Shown here: positions 1-6,679 of the stretch, one piece after another
Layout: every line of letters starts with the position of its first letter
Position numbering within the stretch: the first letter of the stretch is position 1
Notes under the pieces: model-generated
What the model saw: the letters and a program-made list of their open reading frames with translations, nothing else
Database searches by the model: none
Told to the model about the DNA's origin: nothing
Translations under genes and position numbers: made by a program
Virus record (IMG/VR): IMGVR_UViG_2740892036_000008
Strand: one strand, 5' to 3'
DNA: 9,196 nucleotides
Origin: a virus
Taxonomy: Duplodnaviria; Heunggongvirae; Uroviricota; Caudoviricetes

Positions 1-378
1 CTAACATGCGCCGCTTTTTTTAACCCTTCGCAGATCCCGCCTTGCTTGCATTGAAACGGCTCTCGCTAATCTCAGCTCAAGCCGTGCGATTCTGTCGGCA
101 TGTAGCCCCATGAGTCCGTTAATCAATGTCATCTCGCGCCATTCTTCTGTTCCCGGCGTCGGATTATTCGCCAGTAATAGCCCGTATCTCTCAGCCAGCA
201 TGAGGTTTCTTGCACGATTTCGCACCAGCGGAGAAAGCGCCTCTCCCCCCTCAAATGGGAAGAATGCCCGCCGACTGCGTTCGCCATGTTTGACGGCATT
301 AGTATTGCCCAATGGTGCGCCTGCGCCTTTCCGCTTGCCACCCCATCCCGATCTTGATTGTTGGCTATTTTTTTTCAT
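1..378 (-). CDS. hypothetical basic protein (125 aa); possible DNA-binding or packaging-associated function
   Basis: Complete ORF with ATG at 378-376 and TAG at 3-1, weak SD-like GTGAG about 8 nt upstream. Very basic N-terminus (SRSGWGGKRKGAGAPLGNTNAVKHG) and arginine-rich C-terminus. Same orientation as the rest of the module. Function not recognised with confidence. Confidence 0.55.
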   Translation of the reverse strand: MKKNSQQSRSGWGGKRKGAGAPLGNTNAVKHGERSRRAFFPFEGGEALSPLVRNRARNLMLAERYGLLLANNPTPGTEEWREMTLINGLMGLHADRIARLELRLARAVSMQARRDLRRVKKSGAC

Positions 379-379
379 T

Positions 380-782
380 TAACGGCTCACTGTGCGCATT
401 TTTGTGCGCAAAAACCTTAACAAACCCTAACAATACCTTAATAAAACTGTATATCTAACTTCCGCCATCTACTGCGAACTGATAGCGCCCAAGCCAGAAA
501 TATCAAGCCTCTCCACCATTTTGCGAATGCGCAATTCGCGCTTACAAATTACTGCGAATTCGCAATTTCTGTACGCAATGCCACCGTTAGCATTTGTCAG
601 GTAGTACGCACGTTGAATACGCAGTTTTGCTGCGCACTGCGTACCAGTGGAACGAACCAGATATTTAGGACGTCCTGAATCACGATTTGGCTTCCAGCCC
701 GCTACTGGCGCGGGTCTGGCGCTGCTAGGGTTTTAAATCCGTACTAAACAGTACTAAATTTTCCGCCGTTTGGGTGCGAAAC
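380..782. promoter_or_regulatory. ORF-free intergenic region with repeated TACTGCGAA and TGCGCA-core motifs (candidate operator/promoter for the 125-aa gene and termination zone for the ssb operon)
   Basis: No ORF of 60 aa or more on either strand. TGTGCGCA twice (391-398, 404-411); TACTGCGAA three times (470-478, 550-558, 784-792); perfect 12-bp palindrome TGCGAATTCGCA (553-564); 7-bp inverted repeat GTACGCA/TGCGTAC (604-610 / 638-644); tandem GTACTAAA (741-748, 751-758). Confidence 0.35.
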
Positions 783-1094
783 TTACTGCGAACCATCGCC
801 CCCGCTGGTGGTATGCCGTTGCCTCTTGCCGCCATTTAACCGGAAGGCGTTACCGTTCGGTTGCGCTATCCCCATGCGGTGCTGAGTTTCGGTGACAGCT
901 TTATGCAGGTCGCCAAAGTCCTCAACCTTCACGGGCGGGCGCTTCACGTTCTCCAGACACGTTTCACGGCGGCGCTTTATCCATTCCCGATCATCGTCCT
1001 CGGTGCATAACAGCATGACTTCCATCCATCGCGCGGCGGCGCGTCGGTACAGCCCTTTTGCTTCCAGATCCTCAGCTTTGCTGTCGTTTACCAT
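783..1094 (-). CDS. PerC/Pch-like small transcriptional regulator (tentative)
   Basis: ATG at 1094-1092 preceded by GAGGGGGG 5 nt upstream; the ORF-track GTG at 1100 is less likely. N-terminal AEDLEAKGLYRRAAARW resembles the conserved N-terminal motif of PerC-family regulators as I recall it (not searched). Starts 11 nt after the ssb stop, so probably co-transcribed. Confidence 0.45.
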   Translation of the reverse strand: MVNDSKAEDLEAKGLYRRAAARWMEVMLLCTEDDDREWIKRRRETCLENVKRPPVKVEDFGDLHKAVTETQHRMGIAQPNGNAFRLNGGKRQRHTTSGGDGSQ

Positions 1095-1105
1095 GTTCAC
1101 CCCCC

Positions 1106-1567
1106 TCAGAATGGCGTTTCATCGTCGAATGGTGGGCGCTGGTCAAAATCATCAGGGGTGTTATATAGCTCCCATCCCGGCGCGGATTGCGTTTCGTGGC
1201 CCCTGCTGGCTCCACTTGCTTTGACTGACTCGGCCCGCTTCCCGCCGGGGCGTACCGTTCTGGCGCTGATCACGCTGTCGGCTACTACCTGATACCCCTG
1301 CTGTGTACCGCCATCCTTGCCCGCCCACTGATTGACCTGCATCGCTCCGGCAACACTGACTAAATCGCCTTTAACGTGTCCTGCCAGTGCGTCGGCCTGT
1401 TTGCCGAATGCCACCACGCCCAGCCAGAAAGTAACCTCTCCGCCCTCTGCTGCATGGCAAGGCAGTGCCACCGCTAAACGCCCCATTGTCATGCTGCCGC
1501 CGCTGTTTGTCGTTCTGGTCTGGGGATCTGCCACCAGCCGCCCGTAGGCTGATATCTGTGCTGTCAT
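1106..1567 (-). CDS. ssb: single-stranded DNA-binding protein (SSB)
   Basis: 153 aa; ATG at 1567-1565, TGA at 1108-1106. OB-fold-like N-terminal region (GRLVADPQ...FWLGVVAFGK...), low-complexity Gly/Gln-rich linker, and the diagnostic acidic C-terminal tail DFDQRPPFDDETPF (compare E. coli SSB ...DFDDDIPF). Confidence 0.85.
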   Translation of the reverse strand: MTAQISAYGRLVADPQTRTTNSGGSMTMGRLAVALPCHAAEGGEVTFWLGVVAFGKQADALAGHVKGDLVSVAGAMQVNQWAGKDGGTQQGYQVVADSVISARTVRPGGKRAESVKASGASRGHETQSAPGWELYNTPDDFDQRPPFDDETPF

Positions 1568-1667
1568 TTTGCGAATACCTCGAATTATTAGTTTTGCTAA
1601 TGAAGATTGCCCGGCACCGTCTTATTGTGGGACACCTTCGCCAGATTTTTTTGTATATAAACAAAAA

Positions 1668-1933
1668 TAGTGTTGTCTCTGTTGTCTTTGTTGTCTCACG
1701 GCTCTACAGGCCGCGCCACGTCTGGGTTTTGCTGAGACAACATTTGCAATTTCGTGTTGTCTCACCCGGCATAAATGTTGTCTCACTGCCTGCCGGACTA
1801 AAAACACACGTTCGCCCTGTTGTCTCAAAATGGCTAAATGTTGTCTCAATGTTGTCTCAAAAATTAAAATAAAATCCTTATAAATCAATGTAACTTACAA
1901 AATGAGACAACAAAGACAACAGAGACAACACTA
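1668..1933. repeat. iteron cluster: 12 copies of 9-mer TGTTGTCTC bounded by a 31-bp perfect inverted repeat, with AT-rich stretch; candidate replication origin / crr-like site
   Basis: Direct copies at 1671-1679, 1680-1688 (TGTTGTCTT), 1689-1697, 1755-1763, 1776-1784, 1818-1826, 1839-1847, 1850-1858; inverted copies at 1734-1742, 1904-1912, 1913-1921, 1922-1930. 1668-1698 is the exact reverse complement of 1903-1933. Internal direct copies are spaced 21, 42, 21 and 11 bp. 1859-1903 is about 87% A+T. Lies immediately 3' of the primase-helicase gene. Confidence 0.7.
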
Positions 1934-1955
1934 AAACTACGTATGTGAAAAAAGA

Positions 1956-4715
1956 TTATTCTTCTGGCTGGCTGCTTTCCTCATCCATGAAGTTGAGCAC
2001 ATAAACGCGAATTTGCCGCCCTCCTTCCCTTACCCGCCCCTGATAACCTCGCCCGCTCGTTGGTGGTGTTAGCATTCCTGCATTCTTGAGAACTTCGGCA
2101 AACTGCCTGACATTAAAACCCCGTGCGATCTCCTGCTCAAATGTTGCCGGGAAGGTGTAGAAAATTATCGGGTCGCCGTCGTGGTTCCCCTTCTTCCTGT
2201 ACCCGGCTAAATCACGGATGGGTAAATCGCGCGGGTCATAACCCAGCGGCGCGAATCTACTCAGCCCATAGGCATTTAAAAACGCCTCCGTCTGCTCGAT
2301 GATCTGCTGGTGCTCTTTGTTCCCCGTGCCGAACTCTTTCAGCCATGCGTTATAGGTGTGCTGTATCGCATCCCGGCACGTTTGAGCATCCCAGCCAGTA
2401 ACCACGCCACCCAGCAGTAAAGCGGCCTCCAGAATGGCGAACCTCGCCCCTACACGGTGAACCTGTTCCCCATAGTCAGCAGGGATTAGACTTCGCCATC
2501 GGGCTTCACACTCACGAACGGCATCAATCGCCTGCTGCTGGTGGTCTGAAAGCCATCTAATCCACTCCCGCCCGGCAGCGCCATGATGGTGCTGGTAAGC
2601 GTCTTTCAGCGCGTCGGCGTGATCTTTCCCTGTCTGGTGCTCATGAAAGCGCACCGCCTTACTCAGCGGGATATTCAGCAGTCGCACCAGTTGCCCCGCT
2701 TTTGTCTTGCGTCCTGCGGTGGCGATGAACGTTTCTAAATCCATTTCCCCGGTGCTGATTGCCACGGTGCGCCAGCGTTTCAGATCCCGGTTGCCTCCTT
2801 CCTTTGCTCCCTGCAATTTCCCCACGCCGTTAAACAGGGCATAGGCAGACTGAGAAACGCTTATCGGGTCTGCGCCCTGTCCGACTTCATCCAGCGGCAT
2901 CAGCCCGTCATTGTGGGCGGCGGCCTCGTTTATCAGCCCCAGCGCCGTCCCATACCACGTCAGGCGCAAGGCATCAGGGTTGCCGTAAAGACTGCTCGCC
3001 ACGTTCTGCGTGGTTGTTTTCCCGGCGCTCGATTGCTCATAAAAATGAATCCCGAATCCGTCACGATCTGCCACCCCGATTAATGGCGCTGCCAGTGCTG
3101 CGGCGATGCCTGTCATCATCGCGTAGTTGCCGTATGCCAGCCGCGCAACACTGTTAAGCCAGCTTTCAGGCGTTCCTGCTACGGTATACCCGGCAGCGGC
3201 TGAACTGCGCCCGCTGAACAAAACAGGCCGCTGAGGTGTGCCGATGATTTCCCCGTCCGGCATGATGTATGCCCCACACTGCCAGCCTGTAGCATGAGCA
3301 ACGCGCCACAATTCACGCGAGCCGCTTCGCTGTAACCAGTCGGCAAGAATCGCCCGTAGGCTGTTTTTCGTTGTGACGTTGACGCCACCAGCTTTCAGGG
3401 TGCGCCAGCCTTCACGCTCGCCAATATCAGCCAGCGGGATAGCCGCTGTTGTCCGTATGCCTGCACCGAATGCCAGCCATGAGATAATAAGATACTGATC
3501 TTTGTCGTCGCGTCCCGTGCCGATAACCTCCAACGGTGAACATAACCAGCTTTCAGCGTTGATGATCTCCCCGCTTTCCTTGTCCACCTTCGGCGTTACC
3601 CAGAAAACGCCATCTTTTCGGCTCTCAATGTGGGGTTTTAGTGGGTCTTTCTCTGGATGGTCAGTTTTACCGCCCTCAATGGCCTGCAATCGTGGTTTAA
3701 CGGCTTCCCCTTGAATCTGGTACATCGAGTCGTTAAACGCAGCCGTAGCGACTTCCAGCCCGTTTTGCTGGTGGTGGTCGTTCCAGTCGGCTTTGTAGTC
3801 TGTCGGCGGCAGTGCCACCCATCCAGCCACGGACAAGGCGGCTTTCTCTGCGGCCTCCCTGCCTGTATTGGCTTCTCCGTTTTGGTGGTGGTCGTTGTCT
3901 GCGGCGATGATTATTTGTGCCTGTGGATACTTCCGGCGCATCACTTCGGCAACGGGTAGCAGGTTGCCCGCGTCAATTGCTGCCACTGCCAGCGCGTCCG
4001 GGCGCATCAGGTGAACTGAAAGGGCCGTCGCCAGCCCCTCGGCAATTAAAACGCTCTGCGGCGATTCTGGCGCGTTTACGGCGTGATATGCCCCGCGCTT
4101 TGCCGAACCCGTCAGAAGTCGCTTTTCTCCATGCGGTGTAATGGTCTGCGCTGCTGCCACTGCGCCGGATTCATCCACCAGCTCCAGCAATAACGAACCA
4201 TCTGGCATTAGCGGGTAATTAAACCCGGTCAGCCCTTTTGATTGCAGGTACTCAGCTTCGCCCTGTATGGCTCTCTGGCGCATTCCGGCATACAGACGGG
4301 AAAACGTAGCCCGGCGCTGCTCTGCGTCCTCTGCGGCCTTTTTCTGTCGCTCCTGCTCATGCCGCTGGCGGTCTGCGGCTAACTGCGTCTGTCTCTGGCT
4401 GGCAGCGTCTGGTGCTGGTTCTGCGGCCCGGTAATCAATACCCAGCACATCAGCGGCAAGGTGCGCCGCCTCCGTGGTGTCGCAGTTGTTAACCCGTTTG
4501 ATTAAATCCAGCCCATCGCCCGCGCCGCACTGATTGCAGATAAAGCTACCTCGCCCGTTGTCGTCGAATCTGAAACGGTCTTTCCCACCACATGCAGGGC
4601 AGGGGGCATGACGGCGCGATGAATCAGGAACGTCGATAGACAGGCCAGCCAGCACATAAGGCCATTTACCAGCGGCGGCGCTGGTCACTTCGCGGATAAT
4701 GTCGATATTACGCAT
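1956..4715 (-). CDS. primase-helicase, P4 alpha-like (zinc-ribbon primase + Toprim + P-loop helicase)
   Basis: 919 aa; ATG at 4715-4713 preceded by AGGGAGG 8 nt upstream; TAA at 1958-1956. N-terminal zinc ribbon CPACGGKDRFRFDDNGRGSFICNQCGAGDG; Toprim-like acidic motif IIIAADNDHHQNGEANTGREAAEKAA; Walker A EQSSAGKTT in the C-terminal half. Confidence 0.9.
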   Translation of the reverse strand: MRNIDIIREVTSAAAGKWPYVLAGLSIDVPDSSRRHAPCPACGGKDRFRFDDNGRGSFICNQCGAGDGLDLIKRVNNCDTTEAAHLAADVLGIDYRAAEPAPDAASQRQTQLAADRQRHEQERQKKAAEDAEQRRATFSRLYAGMRQRAIQGEAEYLQSKGLTGFNYPLMPDGSLLLELVDESGAVAAAQTITPHGEKRLLTGSAKRGAYHAVNAPESPQSVLIAEGLATALSVHLMRPDALAVAAIDAGNLLPVAEVMRRKYPQAQIIIAADNDHHQNGEANTGREAAEKAALSVAGWVALPPTDYKADWNDHHQQNGLEVATAAFNDSMYQIQGEAVKPRLQAIEGGKTDHPEKDPLKPHIESRKDGVFWVTPKVDKESGEIINAESWLCSPLEVIGTGRDDKDQYLIISWLAFGAGIRTTAAIPLADIGEREGWRTLKAGGVNVTTKNSLRAILADWLQRSGSRELWRVAHATGWQCGAYIMPDGEIIGTPQRPVLFSGRSSAAAGYTVAGTPESWLNSVARLAYGNYAMMTGIAAALAAPLIGVADRDGFGIHFYEQSSAGKTTTQNVASSLYGNPDALRLTWYGTALGLINEAAAHNDGLMPLDEVGQGADPISVSQSAYALFNGVGKLQGAKEGGNRDLKRWRTVAISTGEMDLETFIATAGRKTKAGQLVRLLNIPLSKAVRFHEHQTGKDHADALKDAYQHHHGAAGREWIRWLSDHQQQAIDAVRECEARWRSLIPADYGEQVHRVGARFAILEAALLLGGVVTGWDAQTCRDAIQHTYNAWLKEFGTGNKEHQQIIEQTEAFLNAYGLSRFAPLGYDPRDLPIRDLAGYRKKGNHDGDPIIFYTFPATFEQEIARGFNVRQFAEVLKNAGMLTPPTSGRGYQGRVREGGRQIRVYVLNFMDEESSQPEE

Positions 4716-5616: not shown

Positions 5617-5792
5617 GCTGCCACCTCACGAATGCGGGTAATCTGGATGTGGGAAAGGCGTTCATTTCTGGCCTGATTTAGCGCCTCAGCTTTGGCGCTG
5701 ATCGCGCTGCGGGCGTCAACGATATAAACGAACTCGACTAATTCGCCGCTCCGGGCGGTGGCGCATCCTGCAACACGGAAGTAATTAAGCAT
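5613..5792 (-). CDS. hypothetical small protein (59 aa from ATG; 69 aa if the TTG at 5822 is used)
   Basis: ATG at 5792-5790 preceded by AGGGGG 5 nt upstream; overlaps the Icd-like stop by 8 nt. The ORF-track start at 5822 is TTG and lies inside the Icd-like CDS, so the ATG is preferred. Confidence 0.45.
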   Translation of the reverse strand: MLNYFRVAGCATARSGELVEFVYIVDARSAISAKAEALNQARNERLSHIQITRIREVAA

Positions 5793-5976
5793 GTGCGCCC
5801 CCTGTGCGAATACGTCCGGCAAAAAAGCAAACGTGATCCCGCGCCAGAATGCGGCGGGCTTCCTGCTCAGTTTCTGCGGCGATATGGTGAATTTTGGCGG
5901 TAATTGTCGGCATGTCGCGGCGAACGGCTGCGATTAACCAGATAAATTGTGGATTTTGGGTAGGGGTAGTAGCCAT
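5785..5976 (-). CDS. Icd-like host cell-division inhibitor family small protein (63 aa)
   Basis: ATG at 5976-5974 with GAGG 8 nt upstream; TAA at 5787-5785. Sequence MATTPTQNPQFIWLIAAVRRD...FAGRIRTGGAHA resembles the short Icd-like proteins found ahead of primase genes in P4-like elements (from memory). Only the C-terminal 63 codons of the 257-aa ORF in the track are taken as coding. Confidence 0.6.
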   Translation of the reverse strand: MATTPTQNPQFIWLIAAVRRDMPTITAKIHHIAAETEQEARRILARDHVCFFAGRIRTGGAHA

Positions 5977-6496
5977 GATGGCAGCCTCTATACAGTGAAT
6001 TTTGAATTCACCACCAAGAGACGCCAATCTCAGACTGGTGGTGAGCTGAACAAGGTTGGCGTAACCGGCCTGTATAGACACCGGCCTTCCTTTCGGAAGC
6101 CTCATCCAGCCCACCATAATTTGGGTGCGCAGGAATTTTGCCGACAAAAAAACACGCTTAGTGCGTGTCGGCACTATACAGGTTATCGGGACGCCAATCC
6201 CGGCACCTGATTTTGCAGGTGCGCTATAACCATAAACCGGGTTGGCGATAGTCGGCAAGCCCTTTTTTATGGACTCGCAAAACTCACCTTCGCGCGTGCG
6301 CGTACTGGTCGCAAAACTCGAAAAAAACTTAGGATTTATTAGGATTCGCAGCCCAATTCTCAGCCCAGAAAACGCCTCTAAAATGTCGTCATTTGTCGCA
6401 ACGGCGCGGCGATGAATGTCAGGTTTTGACAGGTTGTAAGGGTTAACATTTGTTAACAGGCTAGCCAGATTAAAGGCTTCTTTCTGGGCGGCAGGT
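5977..6496 (-). ncRNA. candidate structured leader / immunity-type antisense RNA region (C4/CI-like, boundaries unknown)
   Basis: 520 bp with no convincing ORF start on the transcribed strand. 9-bp perfect inverted repeat TCACCACCA/TGGTGGTGA (6008-6016 / 6036-6044, 19-nt loop); minus-strand hairpin CUUCC-GAAA-GGAAG (6086-6099); terminator-like hairpin at 6140-6172; tandem TTAGGATT (6329-6336, 6339-6346); paired GTTAAC palindromes (6442-6447, 6452-6457). Position ahead of an icd-like gene matches P1 immI (c4-icd-ant) and the P4 CI RNA leader. Confidence 0.3.
6140..6172 (-). terminator. intrinsic-terminator-like hairpin with U-tract inside the leader
   Basis: On the minus strand: stem ACACGC/GCGUGU (6163-6168 pairs with 6152-6157), 5-nt loop, followed by six U (forward A-run 6146-6151); flanked by a further inverted repeat GCCGAC/GTCGGC (6140-6145 / 6167-6172). 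About 170 nt upstream of the Icd-like start. Confidence 0.4.
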
Positions 6497-6679
6497 TCAT
6501 TCAGTATCACGGCGCACCTCCACGAACTCCTTAACGAATCTCTCCAAAGGCTGAACACATGGCGACTGATAGCCCTCGCGGTAAAAGGTCACTCGGTTAT
6601 GCTCGACGCGCTGTACGGTCACTACAGCCCCGTGCGAATCCTTGTAACGGCTTCCCGGCATCGGATTATGGTTACGCAT
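6497..6679 (-). CDS. small protein (60 aa), DUF4222-like (tentative)
   Basis: ATG at 6679-6677 with GGAGG 6 nt upstream; overlaps the antirepressor stop by 8 nt; TGA at 6499-6497. Pattern YKDSHGAVVTVQRVEHNRVTFYREGY resembles small prophage DUF4222 proteins as I recall them (not searched). Confidence 0.5.
   Translation of the reverse strand: MRNHNPMPGSRYKDSHGAVVTVQRVEHNRVTFYREGYQSPCVQPLERFVKEFVEVRRDTE

Follow-up and report, generated by a model that had tools for sequence, protein, structure and literature searches.

In a 9,196-nucleotide stretch of DNA recorded as a virus of the Caudoviricetes (IMG/VR record IMGVR_UViG_2740892036_000008; referred to hereafter as the window), a non-coding gap at positions 380–782 of the minus strand separates a PerC-like gene from a gene for a protein of 125 amino acids (aa). 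The window is 100% identical to Escherichia coli strain D5, where it lies within an island of about 12 kb bounded by yicC and dinD; PCN061 and GN4143 are among the strains with an identical island. Comparison of the gap with related islands and with phage genes leads us to consider it probable, at a moderate level of confidence, that the gap is the cis-acting, pac-type packaging signal of a phage satellite, and that it presents an array of the hexamers recognized by the small terminase (TerS) of helper phages. From the PerC-like gene towards the 125-aa gene, it consists of a distal conserved leader and then a proximal hexamer array. The pac words of this array (TGCGCA, TGCGAA/TTCGCA and TACGCA/TGCGTA, typically 12–13 bp apart) are probably the words that the helix-turn-helix (HTH) domain of phage TerS targets within its own terS gene.

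Hexamers common to the gap and to phage terS genes

The first-pass annotation had described the gap as free of open reading frames (ORFs) of 60 aa or more and rich in repeats, and apart from one spacing this description was borne out. The gap encloses no ORF of more than 36 aa; the PerC gene stops at 783, and position 378 is the start of the 125-aa gene. The repeats TACTGCGAA (at 470, 550 and 784), the perfect palindrome TGCGAATTCGCA (553–564), the inverted repeat of GTACGCA (571 and 604) with TGCGTAC (638) and the tandem pair GTACTAAA (741 and 751) were all found as reported. The two copies of TGTGCGCA (391 and 403) and their flanking T5/A5 runs were also present; the spacing of the copies is 12 bp from start to start, not 13 bp as given.

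The unifying element of these motifs is the hexamer class TGCG(A/C/T)A and its complement T(A/G/T)CGCA. There were 14 sites of this class in 380–795, as compared with a mean of 1.2 (sd 1.05) in 5000 dinucleotide-preserving shuffles, none of which reached 14. This corresponds to a density of 34 sites per kb, against 1.4 per kb across the remainder of the window. The presence of a 9-mer three times was matched in 5 of 2000 shuffles. By type, the array comprises four TGCGCA, six TGCGAA/TTCGCA and four TACGCA/TGCGTA sites.

A search for the motifs in helper phages had been proposed, and it revealed the same hexamers, at the same 12–13 bp spacing, in the 5′ part of terS in enterobacterial headful phages. 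A gapped hexamer-pattern scan of viral contigs gave mostly noise from tandem repeats in coding sequence, but the key prophage matches were among its results: several prophages carry a common 64-bp cluster of six TGCGCA sites, positioned inside the terS gene and followed by the terL and portal genes. TerS has the same layout in many enterobacterial temperate phages, with an N-terminal HTH domain of the form M(A/S)(K/R)PDWG...NYxxA(K/R)RYIK (the PDWG domain) and then a linker encoded by the hexamer cluster, which comprises 4–7 hexamers at nucleotides (nt) ∼100–270 of the gene. These proteins are identified as small terminases by Pfam PF03592 or PHROG 370 (E-values down to 5e-125). The linker clusters are of TGCGCA in Klebsiella phage ST11-VIM1phi8.2 and E. 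coli phage vB_EcoS-613R10, of TGCGAA/TTCGCA in Yersinia phage vB_YenM_30.14 and Klebsiella phage RothC, the latter including the palindrome TGCGAATTCGCA twice, and of TACGCA in Klebsiella phage ST11-OXA48phi15.1. Hexamer clusters are thus present within terS of potential helpers among E. coli, Klebsiella and Yersinia phages.

The terS linker of the Stx phage VT2-Sakai (L171, nt 141–182) carries four GATCAT hexamers at an exact 12-bp spacing. Like the pac hexamers of P1, these include Dam sites, and they are placed as the TGCGNA clusters of related terS genes are. This cluster is a candidate for the pac site of Stx phages.

Hexamers occur in all three reading frames in one terS gene (six in L073) and in two frames in another (L172), a distribution within coding sequence that favours selection on the DNA word over selection on the peptide. 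The PDWG domain and the hexamer cluster behave as a joint module that is found on different TerS cores, of either Terminase_2 or PHROG 370 type (L073, L168–L172 and ∼78 IMG/VR ORFs). Among the first 120 viral contigs listed for the pattern TGCGAATTCGCA...TGCGHA, the match lay inside an ORF starting MxxPDW in 80. In 78 ORFs, which come from related loci found by motif, the residue preceding RYIK was K in 66/66 cases with TGCGAA and R in 11/11 cases with TGCGCA. This is suggestive of a K/R residue, in the predicted recognition helix, that tracks the hexamer type, A or C at the fifth base. Of 5426 complete E. coli genomes, 906 had the terS 5′ region of the vB_EcoS-613R10 type, and candidate helpers would on this count be abundant.

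When the gap is read outwards from the 125-aa gene, the first element is a pair of TGCGCA sites 12 bp apart with A/T-run flanks (391–410), directly upstream of the ribosome-binding site of that gene; its hexamer is the type seen in terS of vB_EcoS-613R10 and ST11-VIM1phi8.2. Adjoining this pair are three repeats phased at 10–11 bp (CCTTAACAA / CCCTAACAA / CCTTAATAA; 411–445), which could be a bend or host-factor site of the signal. A Rosenbergiella island (L008, ∼3552–3660) has three TGCGCA and then three CTAACAA, in the opposite orientation relative to its 125-aa homologue. The next block (470–564) is of TGCGAA/TTCGCA type, with sites at 473, 522, 553 and 559 and a TGCGCA at 528. It contains the palindrome TGCGAATTCGCA, the exact unit that occurs twice in terS linkers of RothC-type phages, and is missing from a short natural variant (L042). 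A TACGCA/TGCGTA/TGCGCA block follows (571–644; sites at 572, 605, 618, 631 and 638, mostly 13 bp apart), in which TACGCA is the hexamer type of ST11-OXA48phi15.1 terS. Within the leader lies the direct-repeat pair GTACTAAA (741–758), both copies of which change jointly between islands. Finally, the distal edge of the unit carries two TGCGAA sites 12 bp apart (775–792), positioned across the stop codon of PerC.

The 125-aa gene and its relation to TerS

The 125-aa gene (1–378, minus strand) belongs to a family that is confined to Enterobacterales and in which every member is annotated as hypothetical. The family aligns to residues ∼108–210 of PHROG-370-type TerS (BLASTP E 0.003), which identifies the gene as a homologue of the C-terminal core of these small terminases. 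Profile comparison with hhalign gave a probability of 93.4% against three phage sequences and of 94.9% against 45 phage sequences (E 4.5e-8, residues 23–115), with E-values across the comparisons spanning 2e-7 to 5e-8. A GNxNAxKHG motif and the helical region that follows it are common to the 125-aa protein and the TerS core. The AlphaFold2 model consists of a disordered basic N-terminus (residues 1–32) and a confident helical hairpin (50–124).

As the alignment begins only at TerS residue ∼108, the 125-aa protein lacks both the N-terminal HTH domain and the hexamer-coded linker, and a tblastn search for the PDWG domain found none in the E. coli islands. The 125-aa protein is therefore TerS-derived but is not a complete TerS. 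Searches of Pfam and of PDB sequences, with the protein singly and as a profile, gave no match, and a comparison with PHROGs gave only a weak match to the TerS motif. Taken together, the array and the 125-aa gene look like a dismantled terS, in which the pac-bearing 5′ part would have become non-coding and expanded while the 3′ part persisted as a short gene.

Leader and array in related islands, and alternative readings

The motifs recur in related elements. In a second E. coli island (L002), which has different upstream genes, the gap and the 125-aa gene are conserved together as one unit. Hexamer-class clusters are found as well in Serratia, Rosenbergiella and Pectobacterium islands, where they occupy the interval from the replication module to the 125-aa homologue. 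The Serratia islands have four to five TACGCA with TGCGTA, and the Rosenbergiella islands three TTCGCA and three TACGCA. In Pectobacterium and Brenneria islands the cluster directly follows the iteron origin and is separated from the 125-aa homologue by 2–3 kb of unrelated cargo. Adjacent sites in satellites are most often 12–13 bp apart (37 of 96 pairs), a spacing that is also common in phages. The array ranges from ∼90 nt (L042) through ∼250 nt (the window) to 630–780 nt (L047 and L288), and relatives differ by whole repeat units: a 12-nt insertion of GTACGCAGCCAG (L002 and L018), a 21-nt deletion, and a deletion of ∼230 nt. L042 has no equivalent of window ∼410–625, with the palindrome and two copies of TACTGCGAA. 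Islands without PerC (L002, L043 and L045) have the array, as do islands without the 125-aa gene (L043, L047 and L288), which argues against a dedicated partnership with either neighbour.

Comparison among relatives also defined the leader, a conserved module of ∼190 bp (∼610–800, minus strand) that forms the distal part of the gap. Its direct-repeat pair covaries between islands, being TAGTAC twice here and CTGGAC twice or CTAGAC/CTTGAC in relatives. The remaining elements are TTTAAAACCC, a near-invariant dyad CGCGCCAG-N5-GGGCTGGAAGCC, AGGACGTCCT and AAATAT-CTGGTTCG..CCACTGG. A second copy of the leader is located 785 bp away, past the 125-aa gene and outside the window (L001 13820–14014, some 0–190 bp beyond window position 1), and has its own hexamer cluster (CTGCGAA, CTGCGCA, CTGCGAT, CTGCGCA). 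This second leader precedes an internally deleted remnant of a gene for a 203-aa zinc-ribbon protein. The islands with a single leader (L043, L047 and L288) have no 125-aa gene, and in these the leader and array precede the 203-aa zinc-ribbon gene. Since leader and array are found upstream of either gene, leader, hexamer array and gene together constitute a cassette. The two leaders flank the 125-aa cassette as direct repeats, and its absence from single-leader islands suggests gain or loss of the cassette by recombination between leaders.

A hidden Markov model of the leader, run against ∼290 loci that included phage terS regions, matched E. coli-type satellites only, so the leader is not visibly phage-derived; an exact-pattern scan of IMG/VR with the leader dyad found one further satellite only. 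By eye the leader was likened to SP6-type, sigma-54 or LexA sites, and none of these likenesses was convincing. Its role could be that of a cleavage region, of an activator-dependent or late promoter element, or of a recombination site for cassette exchange.

The second of these roles is part of the main alternative to a packaging signal, namely a transcriptional control region in which the hexamers and leader are operator or activator sites through which the genes of the downstream cassette would be activated at a late stage of helper infection. Candidate regulators would be AlpA, PerC, the 125-aa protein, the 203-aa zinc-ribbon protein or a late activator of the helper. Consistent with this, the unit always lies directly upstream of, and co-oriented with, a 125-aa or 203-aa gene, the direct-repeat pair of the leader covaries, and a leader dyad CCAG-N7-CTGG lies ∼33 bp upstream of AAATAT, an arrangement that resembles an activator-dependent promoter without a −35 element. 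A scan for sigma-70-like promoters, which leaves room for activator-dependent ones, revealed none in window 1–1300 or in the L047 unit. The retention of the array without PerC and without the 125-aa gene is not what such a control region predicts, nor is the distance between the array and the 125-aa homologue in Pectobacterium. Hexamers within phage terS coding sequence, which track a residue of the TerS HTH, would likewise be odd for an operator. We regard transcriptional control as an unlikely account of the gap as a whole, although it may be partly true for the leader.

The array might alternatively be non-functional wreckage, the remains of a captured terS 5′ half whose repeats were inherited and not selected. 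Several satellites do carry traces of such an origin. In three Serratia satellites the non-coding array can be aligned, base for base, with nt 110–300 of ST11-OXA48phi15.1 terS, with an identical 13-8-13 spacing of TACGCA and a vestige of the stretch coding for DTKPIRG. Truncated terS pieces occur in two Serratia satellites: in L016 the hexamer cluster is followed by a truncated Terminase_2 HTH ORF (3703–4074; Pfam E 5e-16), and in L022 a stand-alone 52-aa PDWG HTH ORF (2604–2762) is followed by the cluster. These fragments could be either pseudogenes or DNA-binding domains that function on their own. In the long E. coli arrays of L047 and L288, remnants of the terS segment in question recur as GATACGAAACC...TGCGTACC. 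Against inert remains, the arrays exceed those of phages in size (14–25 as compared with 4–7 sites), mix three hexamer types, occur twice per island, retain the 12–13 bp spacing, and persist across genera although their flanks have diverged beyond recognition. Wreckage explains the origin of the array and not its expansion, duplication and persistence, and as a full explanation it is improbable.

All genes of the island are on the minus strand in the annotation of L001, which revealed no structural or lysis genes. The order begins with an integrase, an AlpA-like HTH regulator, an AntA/B antirepressor, DUF4222 and an Icd-like gene with a C4 antisense RNA; it continues with a TOPRIM-DUF927 primase, an iteron origin, SSB and PerC, and ends with the gap studied here, the 125-aa gene, a second gap, a 61-aa gene and a PRiA4_ORF3 gene. 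The PerC-family gene (783–1100, minus strand), upstream of the leader/array unit, is dispensable for the presence of the unit in relatives. With its co-oriented integrase, AlpA-type regulator and primase, and a gene order common to the satellite EcCIMP1, the island has the layout of a ‘type C’ satellite resembling the phage-inducible chromosomal islands (PICIs), and induction and transfer by a helper are predicted.

Two further features of the island were observed. The C4 antisense RNA (RF01695, 72 bits) and its a1/b1 target / isrK region (RF03163, RF01394), at window 6034–6235 on the minus strand, both fall within the annotated 257-aa ‘Icd-like’ ORF (5785–6558) and adjoin the AntA/B antirepressor gene. 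The satellite thus carries a c4-icd-ant immunity cassette of P1/P7 type, and the 257-aa ORF is probably over-called. At its left end (L001 10239–12240) the island is bounded by two dinD genes, indicating that a dinD copy is carried by the island or was duplicated where it attached.

Short-repeat arrays that follow a primase gene are a typical feature of origins, and the Pectobacterium array directly follows an iteron origin. The gap array could on these grounds be a second iteron set, a cis-replication region or a centromere-like partition site. The origin of the island is elsewhere: at least 13 copies of TGTTGTCTC/GAGACAACA, in both orientations, lie between the primase and SSB genes (window 1660–1940), and these iterons bear no sequence relation to the hexamers of the gap. 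The array itself was accordingly rejected as the replication origin. As the hexamer type does not follow the primase type and the hexamers are common to phage terS genes, a replication or partition role is very improbable.

The remaining proposal, in which the inverted repeats would fold into a small RNA or a structured mRNA leader with a trans-acting role or control over the 125-aa gene, deserves hardly any weight, for although both strands of the gap fold better than shuffled sequence (z −3.4 and −3.0) and the gap is probably within a long minus-strand transcript, like scores on both strands are expected from DNA palindromes, the motifs are conserved in phage coding DNA too, an Rfam scan of the whole window gave no match in 380–782 (E up to 1), no sigma-70-like promoter was found, nor a terminator on the minus (sense) strand, the one weak terminator-like site being on the wrong strand, and gain and loss of whole units among relatives, including the ∼230-nt deletion, is unlike the variation of structured RNAs. 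The first-pass annotation had put forward a small RNA locus or else a multi-site operator for a single DNA-binding protein. The former is not upheld. From the latter, the repeated half-site family as a multi-site protein-binding region stands; the operator does not, and the single protein is probably wrong because the three hexamer types are apparently read by different phage TerS proteins. We conclude that the gap is probably neither an operator for PerC or the 125-aa protein nor a small RNA.

Proposed packaging model and comparison with known systems

If the gap is a pac-type signal, the TerS of a helper in lytic growth would bind the array on replicated satellite DNA via its PDWG domain, TerL would cut nearby, and headful packaging of satellite concatemers would begin. 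With 14–25 sites on an amplified replicon, an array larger than the 4–7 sites of the phage itself would compete with the phage and draw TerS away from it. The three hexamer types would let helpers of differing TerS specificity package the island. The 125-aa protein, devoid of a DNA-binding domain, may join helper TerS rings or contact TerL and so bias packaging. A cos site of a lambda- or P2-dependent satellite was rejected, as neither lambda cosN (up to 2 mismatches) nor P2 cosN (up to 3 mismatches) was matched in the non-coding DNA of the island.

More tentatively, and with less expectation that it will prove right, the island can be viewed as a piracy design not described before, in which the non-coding array is a ‘universal adaptor’ paired with a TerS core that lacks a DNA-binding domain and would co-assemble with helper TerS, shifting its choice in favour of the island. 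Pac words of at least three TerS specificity classes would here be joined so that many unrelated headful phages package the island. One residue of the HTH would possibly correspond to one base of the hexamer, a pac code that might hold for Stx phages as well as for a TerS family that ∼17% of complete E. coli genomes contain.

Several observations weigh against a packaging signal. BLAST of window 1–1600, 600–800 and 380–660 against 50,697 phage records gave no meaningful match; the window array is tied to phages by the identity of its motifs, by their spacing and through homologous islands. The pac sites of phages with PDWG-type TerS are inferred rather than mapped, and the association of helix and hexamer comes from phylogenetically related loci picked by the hexamer pattern. 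The homology of the 125-aa protein to TerS is remote, and Foldseek searches of its model against PDB and BFVD recovered generic helical hairpins only, with no TerS structure. The conserved leader has no counterpart beside phage terS genes, and the array might be what is left of a captured terS gene undergoing decay. Finally, EcCIMP1, the one relative that has been mobilized experimentally, has neither array, leader nor 125-aa gene, showing that the array is not universal in this island family.

The gap nevertheless appears to be a variant of a known strategy, the piracy of packaging signals by satellites. Reading it as a pac-type array would explain what serves as the missing packaging module for satellites of E. 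coli and other enterobacteria that belong to a common but poorly understood class, and, from the sequence comparisons made here, would offer a pac code for a widespread TerS family. If it is correct, sense can be made of a sizeable group of enterobacterial satellites, whose helpers could be predicted from sequence by matching the hexamer types of an array to the TerS helix type. Pac sites would also have been identified for very common temperate phages, including Stx-converting ones, which bears on the transduction of virulence and resistance genes, and a short portable sequence that directs DNA into phage particles would be at hand.

The Staphylococcus aureus pathogenicity islands (SaPIs) encode a complete TerS that has its own DNA-binding domain and its own pac specificity. 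As in SaPI piracy, the island studied here has a terS homologue and an adjoining putative cis site, downstream of the replication module, for packaging by the helper TerL. In contrast to the SaPIs, its terS homologue has no DNA-binding domain and its cis site matches the hexamers of helper phages, so recognition would have to come from the helper TerS.

Seven TGATCA/G hexanucleotide repeats in two clusters inside pacA make up P1 pac, as cited in PMC11260489. The clusters in phage terS genes are similar to P1 pac in that several copies of one hexamer lie within the 5′ part of the small-terminase gene, and in VT2-Sakai the likeness extends to Dam sites in the four GATCAT of the TerS family studied here. 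They differ in their hexamers and in the TerS family concerned (PDWG-HTH, PHROG 370 / Terminase_2). The satellite array differs further in being non-coding, larger, of mixed type and detached from the DNA-binding domain of TerS. P22 pac is likewise located inside terS, and pac-mimicking sequences elsewhere suffice to direct packaging, according to PMC11260489. It is, however, a single asymmetric site of ∼22 bp, whereas a repeat array is present here.

In the Rpp/cosB redirection of the E. coli PICI EcCICFT073, the protein Rpp imitates the DNA-binding domain of TerS and acts together with cos phages (PMC6739421). The present island similarly combines a small TerS-related protein with a putative non-coding recognition site nearby in an E. 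coli PICI, and its two leader-plus-array units parallel cos1 and cos2 of EcCICFT073. Unlike Rpp, the 125-aa protein has no detectable similarity to solved structures, the non-coding regions of the island are devoid of lambda- or P2-type cosN, and the site resembles the signal of the helper rather than departing from it as in EcCICFT073.

A further comparison is with EcCIMP1 (L293, E. coli MP1), a type C PICI that is mobilized by phage Kapi1 and whose packaging mechanism is stated to be unknown (PMC11773190). The two islands have in common the integrase, AlpA-like HTH, AntA/B, DUF4222, Icd-like, TOPRIM-DUF927 primase, PerC, 61-aa and PRiA4_ORF3 genes, but EcCIMP1 has P22-like ejection-protein genes between primase and PerC. 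EcCIMP1 may use another packaging route, which would fit its very low reported rate of transfer.

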